In this document: positions 7,834 to 45,342 of the stretch, piece by piece | How the letters are laid out: each line of letters opens with the position of its first letter | Numbering within the stretch: position 1 is the first letter of the stretch | Virus record (IMG/VR): IMGVR_UViG_648276647_000019 | Span: 1 to 45,585 of that record | Source: a virus | Taxonomy: Duplodnaviria; Heunggongvirae; Uroviricota; Caudoviricetes | DNA length: 45,585 nt | Strand: one strand, 5' to 3' | Program-made: the position numbers and the translations under genes | The notes under the pieces: generated by a model | What the model saw: only the letters and a program-made list of their open reading frames with translations | Databases searched by the model: none | What the model was told of the DNA's origin: nothing

Positions 7834-8717
7834 GTATGGAGCTGATGGTTAAGATGATCATGAGCAAACCAGTAATGATTGATTCTGATAATTCTGGGCG
7901 TTATATTGTTCTGGCAGCGGCAAAATCCGTTGCCGGGATTGGCGTCCTGAAATTGATTACTGAGCATAACCGCGCTCATGCGGTTTTTTCGTGTCATGAG
8001 CATTGCTACGCCCAAATTATGGTGGGGCGTACAGGGCCGACTTCGGTCGGGCCGGGTTCGGTAGTCTCCGGTAACGCCAACCCTGTACGTCTCACCACCT
8101 CTGTGATTGGCGTCCCATGTGGTGAGTTTTCTGAAAAACTGACTACCGGGGCTGTCACCATGACTACTCTCCCAACCCTCACTCAACCTGAAATTGCCAT
8201 CGTTGATGGTCAGGCTGTTACATCTTCTTTGGCTGTTGCTGACTTCTTCTCTAAACGTCATGACGATGTACTGAAAAAGATCCGCATTTTGGATTGTTCT
8301 CCAGAGTTTTGTGCCCGCAATTTTGCGGAGACATCAATTTTGGTACACCAGCCCAACGGCGGTACTCGCAAACTTCCTTGCTACCACATCACCCGCGACG
8401 GCTTCGCGTTCCTGGCAATGGGCTTCACTGGCAAACGTGCAACCCAGTTCAAGGAGGCATACATCAATGCCTTTAACCAGATGGAAAAGGCGCTGATCGG
8501 AAAGGTTGATAATTCATGTGTCGCGCACAATGCCCATGTTGTTTACCTCTACATGGCTGAAATTCACCGCGTCTGGTTAGAACAACTTTATCCGATGCTG
8601 GTTTCAGCTCAGTCGCCGCTGGCTTCATCACTCTACGACTACATCAACGATGGTGTATTCGTTGCCGGGCTGGTGGACTCGGAACTGAACGAAAAGCATA
8701 AGGAGGTGCGTAAGTGA
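7830..8717 (+). CDS. Rha-family phage regulatory/antirepressor protein (295 aa; Rha domain from internal Met at 8160)
   Basis: Strong RBS GGAGGTG before ATG 7830, overlapping the upstream stop; Rha-like core plus a C-terminal domain shared with copy 2. Confidence 0.7.
   Translation: MSMELMVKMIMSKPVMIDSDNSGRYIVLAAAKSVAGIGVLKLITEHNRAHAVFSCHEHCYAQIMVGRTGPTSVGPGSVVSGNANPVRLTTSVIGVPCGEFSEKLTTGAVTMTTLPTLTQPEIAIVDGQAVTSSLAVADFFSKRHDDVLKKIRILDCSPEFCARNFAETSILVHQPNGGTRKLPCYHITRDGFAFLAMGFTGKRATQFKEAYINAFNQMEKALIGKVDNSCVAHNAHVVYLYMAEIHRVWLEQLYPMLVSAQSPLASSLYDYINDGVFVAGLVDSELNEKHKEVRK
7880..8159 (+). repeat. Structured repeat unit 3 (near-identical to unit 1)
   Basis: Terminator-like hairpin about 7966-7992; the UUCG hairpin carries a compensatory pair change relative to unit 1 (CAAC/GUUG to CGAC/GUCG). 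Confidence 0.6.
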
Positions 8718-9655
8718 GCACTAAATTAACCGGCTATGTATGGGATGGTTGCGCTGCGTCAGGCATGAAGTTATCCAGCGTGGCAATTATGGCCCGCCTG
8801 GCTGATTTCAGTAATGACGAAGGTGTGTGCTGGCCATCAATTGAAACCATTGCCCGTCAGATTGGCGCGGGGATGAGTACCGTCAGAACGGCTATCGCAC
8901 GGCTGGAAGCAGAAGGCTGGTTAACGCGTAAGGCGCGTCGCCAGGGTAACCGCAATGCGTCGAATGTTTATCAGCTTAACGTTGCGAAGCTTCAGGCAGC
9001 GGCATTTTCTCAACTGTCAGATTCTGACCCGTCAAAATCTGACGCATCAAAATCTGACCCGTCAAAATTTGATGCGTCGAAATCTGGCAAAAAAGCGGGT
9101 TTTCACCCGTCAGAATCTGGCGGGGATCCGTCAGTAAAATCAAAACATGATCCGTCAGATAAAAAACCTTCTCGTCCGGACGCTTCGCAACCGGACACGC
9201 AGACGGATGAACAGGATTTTTTAACTCGCCATCCTGATGCGGTTGTATTCAGCCCTAAAAAGCGCCAGTGGGGGACGCAGGATGATTTGACCTGCGCACA
9301 GTGGCTCTGGAAAAAAATCATCGCCCTGTACGAGCAGGCCGCCGAATGTGACGGCGAGGTGGTTCGTCCCAAAGAACCTAACTGGACAGCCTGGGCAAAC
9401 GAAATTCGCCTGATGTGTGTGCAGGATGGTCGTACTCACAAACAAATCTGCGAGATGTACAGCCGCGTCAGCCGCGATCCGTTCTGGTGCCGTAACGTGC
9501 TCAGCCCGTCGAAGTTGCGGGAAAAATGGGATGAGCTTTCCCTGCGCTTATCGCCGTCCGTCAGCACGCACACAGAAAAACGTGAAGACCCGTACTTCAA
9601 AGCCAGTTACGACAACGTGGACTACAGCCAGATCCCGGCAGGATTCAGGGGGTGA
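8714..9655 (+). CDS. Replication initiator protein (O-like, winged-HTH N-terminus) with internal iteron origin
   Basis: N-terminal HTH-like segment typical of phage replication initiators; direct DNA repeats embedded in the gene. Confidence 0.7.
   Translation: MSTKLTGYVWDGCAASGMKLSSVAIMARLADFSNDEGVCWPSIETIARQIGAGMSTVRTAIARLEAEGWLTRKARRQGNRNASNVYQLNVAKLQAAAFSQLSDSDPSKSDASKSDPSKFDASKSGKKAGFHPSESGGDPSVKSKHDPSDKKPSRPDASQPDTQTDEQDFLTRHPDAVVFSPKKRQWGTQDDLTCAQWLWKKIIALYEQAAECDGEVVRPKEPNWTAWANEIRLMCVQDGRTHKQICEMYSRVSRDPFWCRNVLSPSKLREKWDELSLRLSPSVSTHTEKREDPYFKASYDNVDYSQIPAGFRG
9015..9170. repeat. Candidate phage replication origin: 15-bp iterons (TCTGACCCGTCAAAA-like, at least four direct copies plus inverted copies) followed by an A-rich tract
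   Basis: Direct repeats read off the sequence at 9021-9080 with related CCGTCAGA motifs to about 9160; an origin inside the initiator gene is the lambda O/ori arrangement. Confidence 0.55.
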
Positions 9656-14406: not shown

Positions 14407-14856
14407 TCACAAGTGAGGGAAGATTCTACGTAATATTGACCAGCACCTTCCGAAGGTATATAGCGAAATCATAAGGGAGGATAAGCCTAACAGTATGAAT
14501 AAGAAATCAATTGGCTGGCCCACAACAATAACATCATCTGGCAAAAACATAGCAATCAATGGGAATACGCATGCGACGATAAGTGTTATTCCTGTTGAAA
14601 GTAAGCGGTTTACTATTGTTGGCAATATGTTGTTTCGCTTAAGAGCATTGATAGCTCCTTCCTTATCGCTATCTGCGCTACTGAATATAGAAATTGCTGC
14701 CAGAACAAACCCAAACAGGATCCCTGAAATTGTCGAAAGCACACCTGCTGTTGTGAGAACGTCAGCATGTTTCATTGGCTTAAACAGTCTGGTTGCCACA
14801 TAGGTAAGTACAGCCAAGAGGACTGCCTTCCAGAGAATAGTCGCTAATTCTCTCAT
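14407..14856 (-). CDS. Small multi-pass membrane protein (about 149 aa, about four predicted TM helices), second gene of the inserted module
   Basis: Several long hydrophobic stretches; lower-GC region; 10-20 nt downstream of the 313-aa gene on the same strand; the two ATGs (14868, 14856) are ambiguous. Confidence 0.6.
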   Translation of the reverse strand: MRELATILWKAVLLAVLTYVATRLFKPMKHADVLTTAGVLSTISGILFGFVLAAISIFSSADSDKEGAINALKRNNILPTIVNRLLSTGITLIVACVFPLIAMFLPDDVIVVGQPIDFLFILLGLSSLMISLYTFGRCWSILRRIFPHL

Positions 14857-14877
14857 TGAATCCCCCATGTCGAGTTA

Positions 14878-15822
14878 TCAAGTTCTGTTAGCGAGTTCAT
14901 ACTGCGCTAAGTAGTTAGCGTTCTCAATTTTAGCAGATATCATCGCTGTTCTGATATCGGAATCAGATGGATAGCCACTTTTAACAACTATTGTTTTTGT
15001 ACCGATCAACACTTGATCAAGTAGGCTTTTCGGCGTTTTGTTTGTGGGTTCAGTGACATCAATTTTCTTGATTTTTAGTCCACCAGAACCTTTGGGAAAC
15101 AGCTCAATCAACTCCTTGATTGCGTCGGTGACTGAGGTTTTAAGATAGTTAAAACCAGCCTTTTTAGGGCGTAAACGACCTCGCATATTCAATCTTAGGT
15201 GCGATCCCCCCATCCCAACGACCATGTCAATGATGTCATTAGTCAAATCGTTCTTAATATTGTAATTAGCTTTATTGAAGTTTCTAGGCGCTGCAATCGT
15301 AAGGTCGAAACTGCGCAAGATATTGCCATCTTCGAGCAGTTCTTTCATGCTCTCATGCTTCCATATTGCTTCAAAAGTAACGTTGTTCATTTTGGTTTTG
15401 TTGTACAAAATAAACGCTAAATCATTAACTTTTGGTCCTAAATGGTTGAGAGTCATGGCTAATAAGTCTGTCTCGTAGTAATACATAAAGTATGTACGCT
15501 CTACGACAGAATCTTTATCGCTAAGGGGTATCGTACGTTCGCTGCCAGTTGTCCTGTCCTCAATAAACGGTAACAGGCAGTCCCTTCTCCAGGATACGTA
15601 GCCAAAGTAGCTCTTCTGTGTTGCGTCCTTTTCAAGTATGACGAGCTTTAAACCTCGATTTTGGGTTTCAGTTGTGTGCACCAAAGGGAAGGTGATCGGG
15701 GCGACTGCAGTAATTTGATCAAAAGCTAGCTTTGCTGTAGACGAACCATCTTTTTTGCTTCCATTACCAGTGAAAAAACCAACTCTAACTCGACGAGTTT
15801 TGTTCTTGTCTTGAGTGCTCAT
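14878..15822 (-). CDS. Hypothetical cytoplasmic protein (313 aa from ATG 15822), first gene of the inserted module; candidate defence protein
   Basis: Lys/Asn-rich, lower-GC ORF; the 415-aa ORF-track version reads through terminator hairpins and A-tracts, so the ATG at 15822 is preferred; no motif assigned. Confidence 0.6.
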   Translation of the reverse strand: MSTQDKNKTRRVRVGFFTGNGSKKDGSSTAKLAFDQITAVAPITFPLVHTTETQNRGLKLVILEKDATQKSYFGYVSWRRDCLLPFIEDRTTGSERTIPLSDKDSVVERTYFMYYYETDLLAMTLNHLGPKVNDLAFILYNKTKMNNVTFEAIWKHESMKELLEDGNILRSFDLTIAAPRNFNKANYNIKNDLTNDIIDMVVGMGGSHLRLNMRGRLRPKKAGFNYLKTSVTDAIKELIELFPKGSGGLKIKKIDVTEPTNKTPKSLLDQVLIGTKTIVVKSGYPSDSDIRTAMISAKIENANYLAQYELANRT

Positions 15823-15870
15823 TCTCGATCCGAAACAAAGTTTAACAACTGGATGAAAACTACAATAAAA

Positions 15871-15900
15871 ATTAGAGAAAATCACTAATGCGGTCCGCAA
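15871..15900 (-). promoter_or_regulatory. Candidate sigma70 promoter for the two-gene module (-35 TTGCGG, 18 nt, -10 TCTAAT on minus strand)
   Basis: Read from the reverse complement of 15871-15900; about 45 nt upstream of the ATG at 15822. Confidence 0.3.
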
Positions 15901-15948
15901 AAAATACTGTAATCTGTTAAGAATGGTCACTTCGCCACACAACTTAAA

Positions 15949-15970
15949 CCCGCCGCGAGCGGTTTTTTTC
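15949..15970 (+). terminator. Plus-strand intrinsic terminator (CCGC stem, loop, GCGG, then T7)
   Basis: ACCCGCCGCGAGCGGTTTTTTT; would stop rightward read-through from Q before the lysis genes. Confidence 0.45.
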
Positions 15971-16002
15971 ATTTCTGGCATCCCGCAGGCAGAAATGCAG
16001 GC

Positions 16003-16032
16003 AAAAAAAAAGCAGGGCGGCGCGCGCCCTGC
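16003..16032 (-). terminator. Minus-strand intrinsic terminator (8-bp GC stem GCAGGGCG/CGCCCTGC followed by U9)
   Basis: Plus strand shows A9 then the perfect-arm hairpin; on the minus strand the hairpin is followed by nine U. Confidence 0.55.
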
Positions 16033-16169
16033 AAAAATGGATGGCGCCAGGGGATGATGGATACCCCTTGACGGTTTCATGTTCTCAACGCACAAGATAG
16101 TATAAAGAGCGGAGAGTGTATACAAAGGAAGTGTTGCAGAATTACAGGAAATGATGCGTTTTGTTATTA

Positions 16170-40963: not shown

Positions 40964-42040
40964 ATGAATATTATAAATATGGAAGGATTCAGTCAGATCC
41001 CCGCAGATGTGGAGCTGAAGGCAGCATCACCCGATAAAACTCTGGAGGTGCTGAAACGGTATGGCGTGGGGCTTATTACCGGGTGCGGAAATATCAGCAC
41101 CCTCAGTTCCCTGAAAGCGGGAACACAGGTGGTGGATACGGTGGCATATCATGGTCTGCAGGCACAGATATATGGTACCGGAAGCAATAGCGGATTCAGT
41201 CTGACGTTTCTGCTTCCTGATGTCAGGAAGGCAGCTGTCCAGGCCGGTTTCCGTTTAACCGTATCAGCCGGAAAAAAACTGACTCAGTCGCTGCTTCGGG
41301 TCGGCAGTTCATCATTTGGTACCAGCATGGCGGATGATGAGGCAACCAGTTATTATTATGAAATATTTGTCCGTTACAGGGCTGACACCTTCATTCAGGT
41401 GGAGTTGTACTGCAACCGGGTGTTGATGAAAACGGATTCATTCCCTTCCGAAGGCAGCTGGTACACGACCCGTGCGCCGGACAAGGTGGAGGTGACGCTG
41501 GGGTCGGAGAATTTTTTTGCAGGGCATGTTCACGGGACGATGACGATCGGCGATATCTATCTCGGTACAACGGACTATGGAGAGAATTTCAGTGCCGTTC
41601 CGGACCTGCTGGGCAGTGTTGAAGTGGCAGCCTGTCCGGTGGTGGCTTTTGAAGGGAATGCGCACGTCAATACCCTGGGGAAGGATGTGGTGAAAGGGCT
41701 GAACTCCGGGACTGCGGAGGCGGGGTATCTGTCCCTGCGTCCGGTTGACCAGCCGGCGGTGATTACGTTTGAAAGGCCGGATGTCGTGGGAAAGAAGGTT
41801 CTCGGTGTGATGGTGGGGCTTACCTGGCGGAGCAGCAGTGCGCCCAACAACCATCTGGCGTGGCAGGTCAGGCAGGGAGCGGTGGACGGACCGCTGATGG
41901 AGGAGGCCTCAGCCAAAGGAGATCCGGGGAGCTGGACAACGCTGACGCGGACATTTATGACGCCGGTGGATAATACGCCGGTGTGGGATGAACGGAATAT
42001 GCAGTTTTCCCTGGTGCTGTATAACCGGAATAATACGTGA
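40964..42040 (+). CDS. Hypothetical protein (358 aa), candidate receptor-binding/tail fibre-like or moron protein
   Basis: ATG 40964 after GAGGTG; Gly/Ser/Thr-rich beta-type composition; no motif recognised. Confidence 0.5.
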   Translation: MNIINMEGFSQIPADVELKAASPDKTLEVLKRYGVGLITGCGNISTLSSLKAGTQVVDTVAYHGLQAQIYGTGSNSGFSLTFLLPDVRKAAVQAGFRLTVSAGKKLTQSLLRVGSSSFGTSMADDEATSYYYEIFVRYRADTFIQVELYCNRVLMKTDSFPSEGSWYTTRAPDKVEVTLGSENFFAGHVHGTMTIGDIYLGTTDYGENFSAVPDLLGSVEVAACPVVAFEGNAHVNTLGKDVVKGLNSGTAEAGYLSLRPVDQPAVITFERPDVVGKKVLGVMVGLTWRSSSAPNNHLAWQVRQGAVDGPLMEEASAKGDPGSWTTLTRTFMTPVDNTPVWDERNMQFSLVLYNRNNT

Positions 42041-42050
42041 GGTGGAACAG

Positions 42051-42317
42051 ATGACGACCCGGAAAATGAGGGTAAATGAAGAGCCGCAGCGGGTGACGGG
42101 CGGGAATGAGACTGCGGTGATACAGTTTAATGGCACCGTGGCGTTGTGTGACAGTGCGGAGAAACCGGCAACGGGTGCGGCAGCGATGTATTTTTCTTCG
42201 GACGGACGTTACCAGACCCTGACAATCACGCCGCCGTTCAGGGCGTGGATATGGTCCGCCGTGCCGGAAAAAACAGTTGATGTGGTGATAAGTGACTGGA
42301 CGGAATCGGTGAGCTGA
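42051..42317 (+). CDS. Hypothetical protein (88 aa)
   Basis: ATG 42051 after GAGGTGG; 10 nt after the upstream gene. Confidence 0.45.
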   Translation: MTTRKMRVNEEPQRVTGGNETAVIQFNGTVALCDSAEKPATGAAAMYFSSDGRYQTLTITPPFRAWIWSAVPEKTVDVVISDWTESVS

Positions 42318-42675: not shown

Positions 42676-42924
42676 TTAGTGAACAAACCACTCGTCAGCA
42701 GACTCCCAGGTATCTTTCAGAGTCTCCTGAACAAATGTTTTTGCAGAATCCTTATCTGCTGTGCGTGTAACAGAAAGCCCATCATTGCTGGTGGCTTTTA
42801 CGATCACTTCTACATCGTCATAACGCTTACTGATGCGCCGAGTTAATTCTTCCTTTAACGCATCCACAGCACCGTTTGGCATTTTAGTCATTTTCTCTTT
42901 GGCTATGCAGATTTCAATACGCAT
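42676..42924 (-). CDS. dinI: DNA damage-inducible protein I homologue (DinI family)
   Basis: 82 aa with DinI-like ends (MRIEICIAK...[11 protein letters not shown]); tandem LexA boxes upstream. Confidence 0.9.
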
Positions 42925-42985: not shown

Positions 42986-44083
42986 TCAAGAGGTCTTGTT
43001 TCTGCTCTTTTGGAGTTCTTCAAAACGATTATGTAAAGATTTCGGATACAGTTCGGTATATACCTGCCATAGCACGTTTAATGAACGATGCCCTGTAACT
43101 TGAGCGACTTCCTCAATACTAAAACCAGCCTCAAATAAGCGACTTGCCCCTTCTCTACGCAAATCATGGTATCGCAGATCTTTAATACCTAATTTGCTTC
43201 TTACCCTCTGAAATCCTGCGGTAACAGAAGTGCTGTTATATGGAAAAATGAATTCTGATTTTTTTGGTTGTCGCTGGACGATATCCCAGGCTTCCCCAAG
43301 CAAGGCAACTTTCATATGGTTACCTTCCTTTTTACGTGGATCTTTCCTATCTCTTACTAGTATAGATTTTTGTTCTTGGTCGAGATCTTCCCATCGTAAC
43401 CGGCATAATTCTCCGATTCGCATACAGGACCACACAGAAAATTTGAGGATATCAACGAACGGAATTTTTGAGCATTTATGAGTAGATCGTTGTTGAAGGC
43501 CTTCAATGAGCATGTCCAGTTCATCAGATGCTGGTCTACGATTACGACGGTTTGATTTACCAATCAAACCGAGTTTAAGTAGATATGGACGAGCGCTTTT
43601 CGCCGGGTTTGATGTGTAATTGATTCCGTATACAGGTTTTGCCGCATCCAGAACACTGCCAAGATAACTAACATCGTGGCTGACTGTTGCTGGGCCTGCA
43701 CCAGCGTTGTTTCTTAGCCTGCAATGTTCAATTACGTCATTTTCTGTCAGTTCAGATAGTTTGATCGCGGATATGTCACTATCCATAAGCAGTTCCAGCA
43801 CATATCTTTTAGTACGGCCTGCTTTACCTCCGGCATTTGGGTCATTTAAATATTTGTGTAGTAAGTCACGGACTGTAAGTCCATCAACAGCATTTGATGA
43901 TGGAATGCCATATAGATCTAATTCCATCACTTTCTGTGCGCCCCATGTTTTGGCATGAGCATGTTTAGGGAATGTTTTGCTTTCCCTGTAAGTGATAACA
44001 CCTTTTTCTTTGATAATCACATTACAGCGATAGCGTGGTGTGCCATCGGATTTTAGTCGTTTCTCTATGTTATAGTACGCCAT
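42986..44083 (-). CDS. int: Tyrosine-type site-specific integrase (dusA-associated)
   Basis: 365 aa with tyrosine-recombinase catalytic-domain motifs (R...HDLRR...Y near the C-terminus); abuts the dusA 5' end. Confidence 0.95.
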   Translation of the reverse strand: MAYYNIEKRLKSDGTPRYRCNVIIKEKGVITYRESKTFPKHAHAKTWGAQKVMELDLYGIPSSNAVDGLTVRDLLHKYLNDPNAGGKAGRTKRYVLELLMDSDISAIKLSELTENDVIEHCRLRNNAGAGPATVSHDVSYLGSVLDAAKPVYGINYTSNPAKSARPYLLKLGLIGKSNRRNRRPASDELDMLIEGLQQRSTHKCSKIPFVDILKFSVWSCMRIGELCRLRWEDLDQEQKSILVRDRKDPRKKEGNHMKVALLGEAWDIVQRQPKKSEFIFPYNSTSVTAGFQRVRSKLGIKDLRYHDLRREGASRLFEAGFSIEEVAQVTGHRSLNVLWQVYTELYPKSLHNRFEELQKSRNKTS

Positions 44084-44260
44084 TACACGACCTCGTTATT
44101 TCGGGTTCCCATAAAACGTGGGAACCTGTGCGGGAACCTAACGCGAGAAAAATAGCCTGAAATGTTCAAAAATGCACGATAATCCTGAAACACAGAAAAC
44201 TAATCAAACCAGCGTCATGCCTGAAAAAACTGGCGCTTACTGGAGTTCTCGGTTTAGCAT
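44084..44260. other. Approximate prophage right attachment region within the 5' end of dusA
   Basis: Integrase start at 44083 and dusA start at 44172; the dusA N-terminal residues differ from the E. coli K-12 N-terminus as I recall it, while the rest looks native. Confidence 0.4.
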
Positions 44261-45209
44261 TGCTCCTATGCTTGACTGGACGGACAGACATTGCCGTTAT
44301 TTCCTGCGTCTGCTTTCCCGCAATACGTTGCTGTATACCGAAATGGTGACCACAGGGGCGATTATTCACGGTAAAGGTGATTACCTGGCGTACAGTGAAG
44401 AAGAACATCCGGTAGCGTTGCAACTCGGGGGTAGCGATCCGGCGGCGCTGGCACAGTGTGCGAAGCTGGCAGAAGCGCGCGGATATGATGAGATCAACCT
44501 GAATGTCGGCTGCCCGTCTGACCGGGTGCAGAACGGCATGTTTGGTGCGTGTCTGATGGGTAATGCGCAGCTGGTTGCCGACTGCGTGAAAGCGATGCGC
44601 GATGTGGTGTCGATTCCGGTGACGGTGAAAACGCGTATTGGCATCGATGATCAGGACAGCTATGAATTTCTCTGCGATTTCATCAACACCGTTTCCGGCA
44701 AAGGTGAGTGTGAGATGTTCATCATCCACGCACGTAAAGCCTGGCTTTCTGGGTTAAGTCCGAAAGAAAACCGTGAGATCCCGCCGCTCGATTATCCGCG
44801 TGTGTATCAACTGAAGCGTGACTTTCCGCATCTGACGATGTCGATTAACGGTGGTATCAAGTCGCTGGAAGAAGCTAAAGCGCATTTGCAACATATGGAT
44901 GGCGTGATGGTCGGGCGCGAGGCGTATCAGAATCCGGGGATTCTGGCGGCGGTAGACCGAGAGATTTTTGGTTCCTCGGATACCGATGCCGATCCGGTGG
45001 CGGTAGTGCGCGCCATGTATCCGTACATTGAGCGTGAACTCAGCCAGGGGACGTATCTCGGCCATATTACCCGGCATATGCTGGGCTTGTTCCAGGGTAT
45101 TCCTGGCGCGCGGCAGTGGCGACGTTATTTAAGTGAAAATGCCCATAAAGCGGGTGCAGACATTAATGTGCTGGAACACGCGCTCAAACTGGTGGCGGAT
45201 AAGCGTTAA
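44172..45209 (+). CDS. dusA: tRNA-dihydrouridine(20/20a) synthase DusA (host gene; 5' end likely phage-supplied)
   Basis: 345-aa protein with the DusA FMN-binding TIM-barrel sequence; ATG at 44172. Confidence 0.9.
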
Positions 45210-45342
45210 CTTTTCACCAAAAAGTAGTCAAATTCACCACGCCCTGCGCACCGTCGCGGGGCGTTTTGCTGTTAAATCAATAGATTATTTTTGGCATGAT
45301 TCTTGTAATGCCAGCAAGAGATTTCATATTTGGGAGAGCATC

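Follow-up and report, generated by a model that had tools for sequence, protein, structure and literature searches.

Evidence for a phage-supplied dusA 5' end at the attR of an mEp460-type lambdoid prophage

Mobile elements that integrate into dusA have been described as the DAI family, which is defined by tyrosine recombinases that are nearest to Rci and whose genes adjoin the 5' end of dusA (Farrugia et al. 2015; PMC4482086). DAI elements replace the 5' end of dusA and leave semi-conserved imperfect direct repeats of about 21-28 bp; a homologue of prtN, present in 64% of published dusA islands, is frequent but not defining (PMC4482086). In A. baumannii D1279779, the att sites, TCAGTAGCCCCTATGATGGATTGGAC and TCAGTGTAGCTCCAATGATGGACTGGAC, cover the codons S-V-A-P-M-M-D-W (supplement to PMC4482086), and the att site in A. 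baumannii was mapped by excision PCR (PMC4482086). Insertion into dusA has also been reported for Stx1a, Stx2a, and Stx2k phages with the integrase considered here, including Lys8385Vzw and the Stx2k phages.

The DNA analysed in this work is 45,585 nucleotides long and is referred to, in its entirety, as the window (positions 1 to 45,585 of IMG/VR record IMGVR_UViG_648276647_000019). It almost certainly contains the attR end of an mEp460-type lambdoid prophage that entered dusA by means of a DAI-family tyrosine integrase. The features on which this assignment is based are the following:

1-44275, no strand assigned: lambdoid prophage, extending leftward from attR as far as window base 1, with phage genes throughout
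42676-42924, minus strand: DinI-like gene (Pfam DinI, E = 1.2e-19)
42986-44083, minus strand: dusA-associated tyrosine integrase of 365 aa (Pfam Phage_integrase)
44084-44171, no strand assigned: spacer of phage origin (P arm of attP) bearing three GGGAACC motifs
44172-44267, plus strand: phage-supplied dusA 5' end, codons 1-32 (from the same-lineage empty site and phage genomes)
44268-44275, plus strand: 8-bp core ATGCTTGA (from the four-way att comparison)
44276-45209, plus strand: chromosomal dusA body, codons 36-345 (from identity to Z0117EC0055 and matches to Pfam Dus and NCBIfam DusA)

The gene content of the prophage includes an S24 repressor, CII-like, Ash/Rha, and O-like proteins, Q, a tail-fibre N-terminal domain, and DinI. 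The integrase gene, int, adjoins the DinI-like gene, which is followed by tail-fibre genes, and dusA is followed by pspG, as in any E. coli. The prophage thus ends in this region, and int is its outermost gene. DinI is a conserved neighbor in the integrase module, being found beside the integrase also in mEp460, SKA5, O157, EC12, and a plasmid-borne copy. The int product matches Pfam PF00589 (Phage_integrase) with a score of 75.5 bits (E = 5.8e-21), and residues R222, H306, R309, H332, and Y342 (RHRH/Y) are invariant in its alignment with homologues of 34-69% identity. The dusA ORF spans positions 44172-45209 of the plus strand (345 codons), and its match to NCBIfam DusA scores 581 bits.

Several other features were observed in the prophage part of the window. 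Positions 5637-8717 comprise three diverged Ash/Rha regulator units in tandem, arranged as a 594-aa ORF (Ash-Rha-Rha) followed by a 295-aa Ash-Rha ORF; these tandem units account for direct repeats of 190-195 nt and for three GC-rich, T-tailed 22-mers. Six iteron-like repeats of the TCAAAATCTGAC type, with 15-nt spacing, occupy positions 9002-9124, within a gene resembling those of HTH replication initiators (8714-9655), and are probably the phage origin. Directly after the Q-like antiterminator gene, two ORFs of 153 and 415 aa lie on the opposite strand (14407-16125, minus). They match phrog_8552 and phrog_7651, PHROG families without known function, and look like a moron of unknown role. The 415-aa ORF, the one of the pair that was scanned, had no Pfam match, and PADLOC returned no match for the minus-strand ORFs at 14407-16125 or for the ORFs at 40964-42317. 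The window's ORF list contains no stx-sized ORF in the interval between Q and the lysis genes.

An earlier note on this DNA had stated that the start of int abuts dusA, and that the first residues of DusA differ from those of E. coli K-12, while the rest looks native. The former is borne out: the int ATG is at position 44083 and the dusA ATG is at 44172, so the two genes are divergent and separated by an 88-bp spacer. As to the latter, comparison with the DusA of K-12 (MC4100) revealed 10 residue differences, all of them in residues 3-30, with the other 315 residues identical; in the DNA, differences affect 19 of the first 102 nt and 25 of the remaining 936 nt. The position of the differences is therefore as the note had it, but its reference is not a native one, for the K-12 N-terminus itself appears to be element-derived (see below).

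The loci compared with the window were the empty sites of K-12 (L001) and Z0117EC0055 (L002), and the occupied site of EC12 (L003). Strain Z0117EC0055 represents the same host lineage, for which the dusA body is 99.8% identical to that of the window. All 60 mismatches between the window and the unoccupied dusA of this strain fall in nt 1-96, while nt 97-1038 agree throughout (0/942). Host-derived sequence therefore starts at position 44268. As the first 96 nt are essentially unrelated to those of the same-lineage empty site, the replaced segment is sharper and more divergent than had been thought. Alignment with an unoccupied dusA, the check proposed in the earlier note, thus located the junction, with divergence exactly left of 44268; the note had regarded a 5' end identical to that of an unoccupied strain as evidence against its reading, and what was found is 60 mismatches in 96 positions. 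Within the replaced segment, an internal ATG at 44217 (MPEKTG...), a possible alternative start, lines up with the native start codon. The T. thermophilus Dus structure (3B0P) can be aligned with the protein only from residue 26 onward, so the first 25 residues are an extension without a counterpart in that enzyme.

To search for phage sequences, a query comprising int and its flank (42986-44330) was compared with 50,697 phage records. Ten records match from the int stop codon onward, with 96-97% identity, and their matches end at query positions 1287-1292, i.e., at 44272-44277 of the window. The records are those of mEp460 (two records), mEp460_4F5, PhiR40_1, PhiR47_1, PhiR55_1, phiSTEC1575-Stx2k, SKA5, Lys8385Vzw, and 1720a-02; in the case of SKA5, the dusA fragment is labelled "tRNA-dihydrouridine" by the depositors. 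We conclude that the segment 44084-44267 is of phage origin. Copies of the dusA 5' end beside int are also carried by more distant phages, namely Yersinia YeP3 (integrase 69% identical to that of the window; copy ending ...RFSVAPMLD), Shewanella M16-3 (54%), Burkholderia BcepIL02 (36%; copy ending ...CAPMMDWTD), and Pseudomonas E220 (35%; copy ending ...RFSVAPMMD).

These data bear on two other accounts of the 5' end. At 81% identity to the widespread K-12 allele, the 5' end in the window could, at first sight, be taken for a diverged allele, the N-terminal differences then being ordinary allelic variation in a gene left untouched by a prophage in the zur-dusA intergenic region. This is extremely improbable, given that the segment is found in packaged phage genomes, with homology stopping at the core, that the same-lineage empty site combines an unrelated 5' end with an identical body, and that a displaced native fragment is found at attL of related lysogens (in O157, the PGAP annotation calls this displaced 5' fragment a partial dusA). 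An import of the 5' end from K-12-type E. coli by homologous recombination, independent of the prophage, would be favored by the homology of the two 5' ends over about 107 nt. We consider it just as hard to credit, since the window sequence is only 81% identical to the K-12 type versus 96-97% to the phage copies, the spacer upstream is contiguous phage DNA without K-12 similarity, and the breakpoint coincides with the att core. Delivery of the dusA 5' end by the phage itself is thus strongly preferred.

The site of recombination was located by comparing four att sequences: attP of mEp460 and SKA5 (...gcattgctcctATGCTCGAtaggatgtaccg), attB of Z0117EC0055 (cgattgccccgATGCTTGActggacggacag), attR of the window (gcattgctcctATGCTTGActggacggacag), and attL of a related lysogen, UID2404240032, where it adjoins zur (cgattgccccgATGCTTGAtaggatgtaccg). 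Only ATGCTYGA (window positions 44268-44275) is shared as a block by all four; its sixth base is C in the sequenced phages versus T in the window. The four sites are consistent with a single crossover, and the comparison places strand exchange, as far as it can be read from sequence, within this 8-bp core, which covers the Met-Leu-Asp codons of "APMLDW". The core is surrounded by a 27-bp imperfect repeat (44259-44285), in which attR (ATTGCTCCTATGCTTGACTGGACGGAC) and attL (ATTGCCCCGATGCTTGATAGGATGTAC) have 21 of 27 bases in common. The core corresponds to nt 97-104 of the dusA ORF, in agreement with the expectation in the earlier note that it would lie within roughly the first 100 nt. The note's central proposal, a dusA-specific integrase whose element carries a replacement 5' end for the gene, is upheld by the phage genomes, the empty site, the attL of related lysogens, and the near-identity of the integrase to one from a listed DAI island.

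A second copy of the att region as a direct repeat was not found in the window, because attL lies outside it. In the related lysogen L004, the attL core is located 3,072 bp to the left of the position aligned with window base 1; by this alignment, attL of the window prophage would lie about 3 kb beyond the left edge. The matching core anticipated at the other prophage end was thus found at attL of related lysogens, while that of the window genome itself falls outside the window. The predicted attL of the window genome would consist of zur followed, ~210 nt later, by ...CGATTGCCCCGATGCTTGA joined to TAGGATGTACCG, the native dusA 5' fragment being fused to the phage arm as ...CCCCGATGCTTGATAGGATGTACCG. 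Such a displaced native 5' fragment beside zur, joined to the other phage arm, is seen in UID2404240032 and in O157:H7 NE122. A different pattern was observed at attR of O157:H7 NE122 (L005), where the 11 nt left of the core are of the K-12 type (gcgttgcacca) and not of the phage type (gcattgctcct), with phage-type sequence further left. This suggests exchange or gene conversion between homologous 5' copies, to the left of the usual core.

These comparisons lead to the following mechanism. The attP site is composed of the 8-bp core ATGCTYGA, an integrase-side spacer with GGGAACC repeats, a copy of the dusA start, and a second arm on the far side. The phage copy amounts to 32 codons, ending ...RFSIAP. 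Crossing over between this site and its counterpart core in the chromosomal dusA joins the copy in frame to the body of the gene, so that the DusA reading frame, including the first TIM-barrel beta strand, is left intact; the native dusA 5' fragment would remain beside zur at the other end of the prophage. The chimeric DusA is predicted to be active. The spacer (44084-44171) is where a promoter of int or of chimeric dusA would necessarily lie; a scan of positions 43900-44400 for simple σ70 consensus promoters and terminators returned none. For annotation purposes, the analysis fixes the right boundary of the prophage to 8 bp and shows dusA to be still an intact ORF.

The GGGAACC motifs of the spacer are located at 44103-44110 (minus), 44120-44127 (plus), and 44132-44139 (plus). 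Exact GGGAACCT sites occur three times in 45.6 kb, and two of them are here, 12 bp apart. The motifs are kept in the Kosakonia and Phytobacter elements, whose integrases are 82% identical to that of the window, while in Yersinia YeP3 their place is taken by GGGGTGCT pairs, arranged alike, with a second pair on the other arm. The GGGAACC motifs are probably binding sites of the arm type, and we regard them as candidates for recognition by protein.

The window prophage may still be able to excise. DAI elements are described as leaving in circular form, which restores native dusA, and the phage genomes with a reconstituted attP are in indirect agreement with this. A PrtN-family gene is located at the far end of the element in L004, O157, mEp460, and the plasmid-borne copy, at a spot whose equivalent lies left of window base 1; its product is a likely directionality factor. 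It is conceivable, though unlikely, that the junction is as described above but the prophage is fixed and does not excise, making the chimeric dusA permanent rather than reversible. Decayed versions of the element are indeed common, e.g., a 10.9-kb remnant in O157:H7, an Intestinirhabdus locus whose integrase gene is a pseudogene, and fossils lacking an integrase in both Kosakonia and K-12-type E. coli. The window, however, contains an intact integrase ORF with all catalytic residues and an apparently complete lambdoid gene set, and near-identical int-attP modules are present in inducible phages, all of which argues for an element that would retain the capacity to excise.

The window element belongs to the DAI family of Farrugia et al. 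2015 (PMC4482086). Its integrase is identical at 363 of 365 positions to that of the O157:H7 dusA remnant, which measures 10,855 bp from core to core in NE122, exactly the value of the EC4115 entry in Table S1 (PMC4482086); identity to the integrases of mEp460, mEp460_4F5, and PhiR47_1 is 97.8-99.5%, with 97.8% for mEp460. The att repeat of the window lies at the same S/V-A-P-M-L/M-D-W codons as attL and attR of A. baumannii. Annotations hint at a link to Rci, the mEp460 depositors citing INT_Rci (cd00796) and distant phage homologues being named "shufflon-specific DNA recombinase". Homologues of the integrase encoded next to dusA, in the same arrangement, were found in Kosakonia sp. S29 (82.5% identity), Phytobacter ursingii (82%), a metagenome-assembled genome of Pluralibacter (70%), and Intestinirhabdus alba (64%, partial sequence), and in each of these genomes the dusA alongside has the same type of 5' end.

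The junction sequence 44084-44267 is present in 742 of 5,426 complete E. coli genomes. With this many genomes sharing it, and with dusA-inserting Stx phages already reported, integration into dusA with a phage-supplied 5' end is a known phenomenon; replacement of the dusA 5' end is well documented for this integrase family, and the present case is therefore ordinary. EC12 (L003:1-1371) has the same integrase and attR, with 99.8% DNA identity over window positions 44084-45300; its cargo is different, with a gene for a reverse-transcriptase-domain protein and a gene for a SLATT-domain protein beside DinI. Plasmid pEND_Eco 18005 (NZ_CP126947.1), a 205-kb F-type plasmid, carries a 41-kb contractile-tail prophage with the module of int, DinI, and dusA copy in a ParB-family gene. 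The junctions of this prophage are ...cccgTGCTCGA joined to TAGGATGTACCG (L094:7814) and ...cctATGC joined to GGCACCGGACAG (L094:49185); since they share only TGC, this is a case of secondary-site integration, with the dusA copy fused to a truncated parB-like gene. The same module was found at seven plasmid places. A review of Stx phages counts yjbM, zur, and dusA as separate insertion sites (PMC8065619). All three genes flank one att site, and which gene neighbors attL depends on the resident dusA allele; most simply, the "dusA", "yjbM", and "zur" sites of the STEC literature are probably a single att site named after different neighbors.

The body of dusA was matched in all complete E. coli genomes (5,426/5,426), with alignments that begin at three different places. 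Resident dusA 5' ends are of the K-12 type in 4,302 genomes and of a second type in 1,123; together, these account for 5,425 of the 5,426, and the two types never occur in the same genome. In the second type, zur ends 210 nt from the core. E. albertii, E. whittamii, and Escherichia sp. E1V33 share with it both the type of N-terminus and the spacing of 210 nt, and a short, native-type N-terminus is present in nearly all other Enterobacteriaceae sampled. Judged by this distribution of sequence types, the second type is the ancestral dusA 5' end of Escherichia. The K-12 end is of the element type and differs from the ancestral one; K-12 therefore cannot serve as a native reference.

Several properties of the K-12 type are reminiscent of an occupied site. 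Its 5' end (L001:3001-3107, compared with window 44169-44275) shares 81% identity with the phage copy and 84% with the copy beside the integrase gene of Kosakonia sp. S29, while only 33% of aligned positions match the native type versus 25% expected by chance. Departure from the native type occurs at the att core, and in the K-12 type zur and dusA are separated by ~1.55 kb of additional DNA (yjbL/yjbM). By these sequence features, the K-12-type dusA 5' end looks like a fossil attR. We think it likely that the K-12 5' end (MHGNSEMQKINQTSAMPEKTDVHWSGRFSVAP..., the basis of the 345-aa annotation) is the fossil right junction of an extinct dusA element, present in ~79% of E. coli, and that present-day phages integrate into this fossil. 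In O157:H7, for example, the current element sits in a K-12-type 5' end, which is now a 105-nt pseudogene at attL.

In the K-12 zur-dusA interval, tblastn detected no significant integrase remnant; a 14/16-nt match to the int start, in the collinear position (empirical p about 0.04), is at most a possible vestige. The DUF2713 (yjbM) protein was absent from all 80 species loci searched, so yjbL/yjbM can be regarded only as putative cargo. Elsewhere, an integrase-less copy in Kosakonia pseudosacchari has a recognisable, decayed P arm (p about 0.001), and in Intestinirhabdus an integrase pseudogene lies beside an element-type dusA 5' end. A decay series at dusA was observed in Kosakonia, Intestinirhabdus, and Silvania, with a partial integrase at one locus (L065) and none at three others (L021, L067, and L070), of which L021 still has a degenerate P arm.

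The opposite course of events, in which a K-12-type host was the source of the dusA copy in the phages, was considered and rejected for E. coli, because in all outgroup Escherichia and in most Enterobacteriaceae zur lies directly upstream of a dusA with the other, short N-terminus. It is also disfavored by the occurrence of the element type in scattered genera, beside an integrase or decayed arm sequences. The ultimate source of the dusA copy was presumably some ancient host. We did not find the point that the K-12 N-terminus is element-derived in Farrugia et al. 2015 (PMC4482086). If the K-12 5' end is indeed a fossil junction, the start of dusA has been replaced serially by mobile elements, and the native start (MPAESHTVYPAYRFSIAP..., 210 nt from zur) persists only in ~21% of E. 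coli and in E. albertii, E. whittamii, and E1V33. The use of K-12 DusA as the wild-type N-terminus, or as a reference for occupancy, would then amount to comparison against an element-derived sequence, and dusA would exemplify a host gene whose start was overwritten repeatedly by mobile elements and which was nevertheless kept.

Known systems close to the window element include the DAI islands and prophages, among them A. baumannii D1279779_RGP05, P. protegens Pf-5 Prophage 03, and the O157:H7 EC4115 remnant. In all of them, the integrase gene is divergent from dusA, a new dusA 5' end that includes beta strand 1 is supplied, and the repeats lie at the ...APM(L/M)DW codons. Excision has been shown by experiment only for the DAI elements of Acinetobacter and Pseudomonas, whose integrases are ~31-35% identical to that of the window, as judged from phage homologues in those genera. 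The SGI1-related genomic islands of Vibrio are reportedly mobilizable, IncC-plasmid-dependent elements, and not phages. They, too, reportedly target dusA (PMC8409611). The same int-attP module as in the window is found in mEp460, mEp460_4F5, SKA5, Lys8385Vzw, phiSTEC1575-Stx2k, 1720a-02, and PhiR40_1/47_1/55_1, but outside this module the genomes are mosaics, with contractile tails in SKA5 and the plasmid-borne copy and stx in others. In phage 21 and e14, which use icd, and in phages that use the 3' ends of tRNA genes, attP carries the displaced gene segment and thereby preserves the gene. In those cases it is a 3' end that is replaced, whereas the window phage replaces the 5' end of dusA, including the start codon and presumably the promoter, which would place dusA expression under signals supplied by the element.
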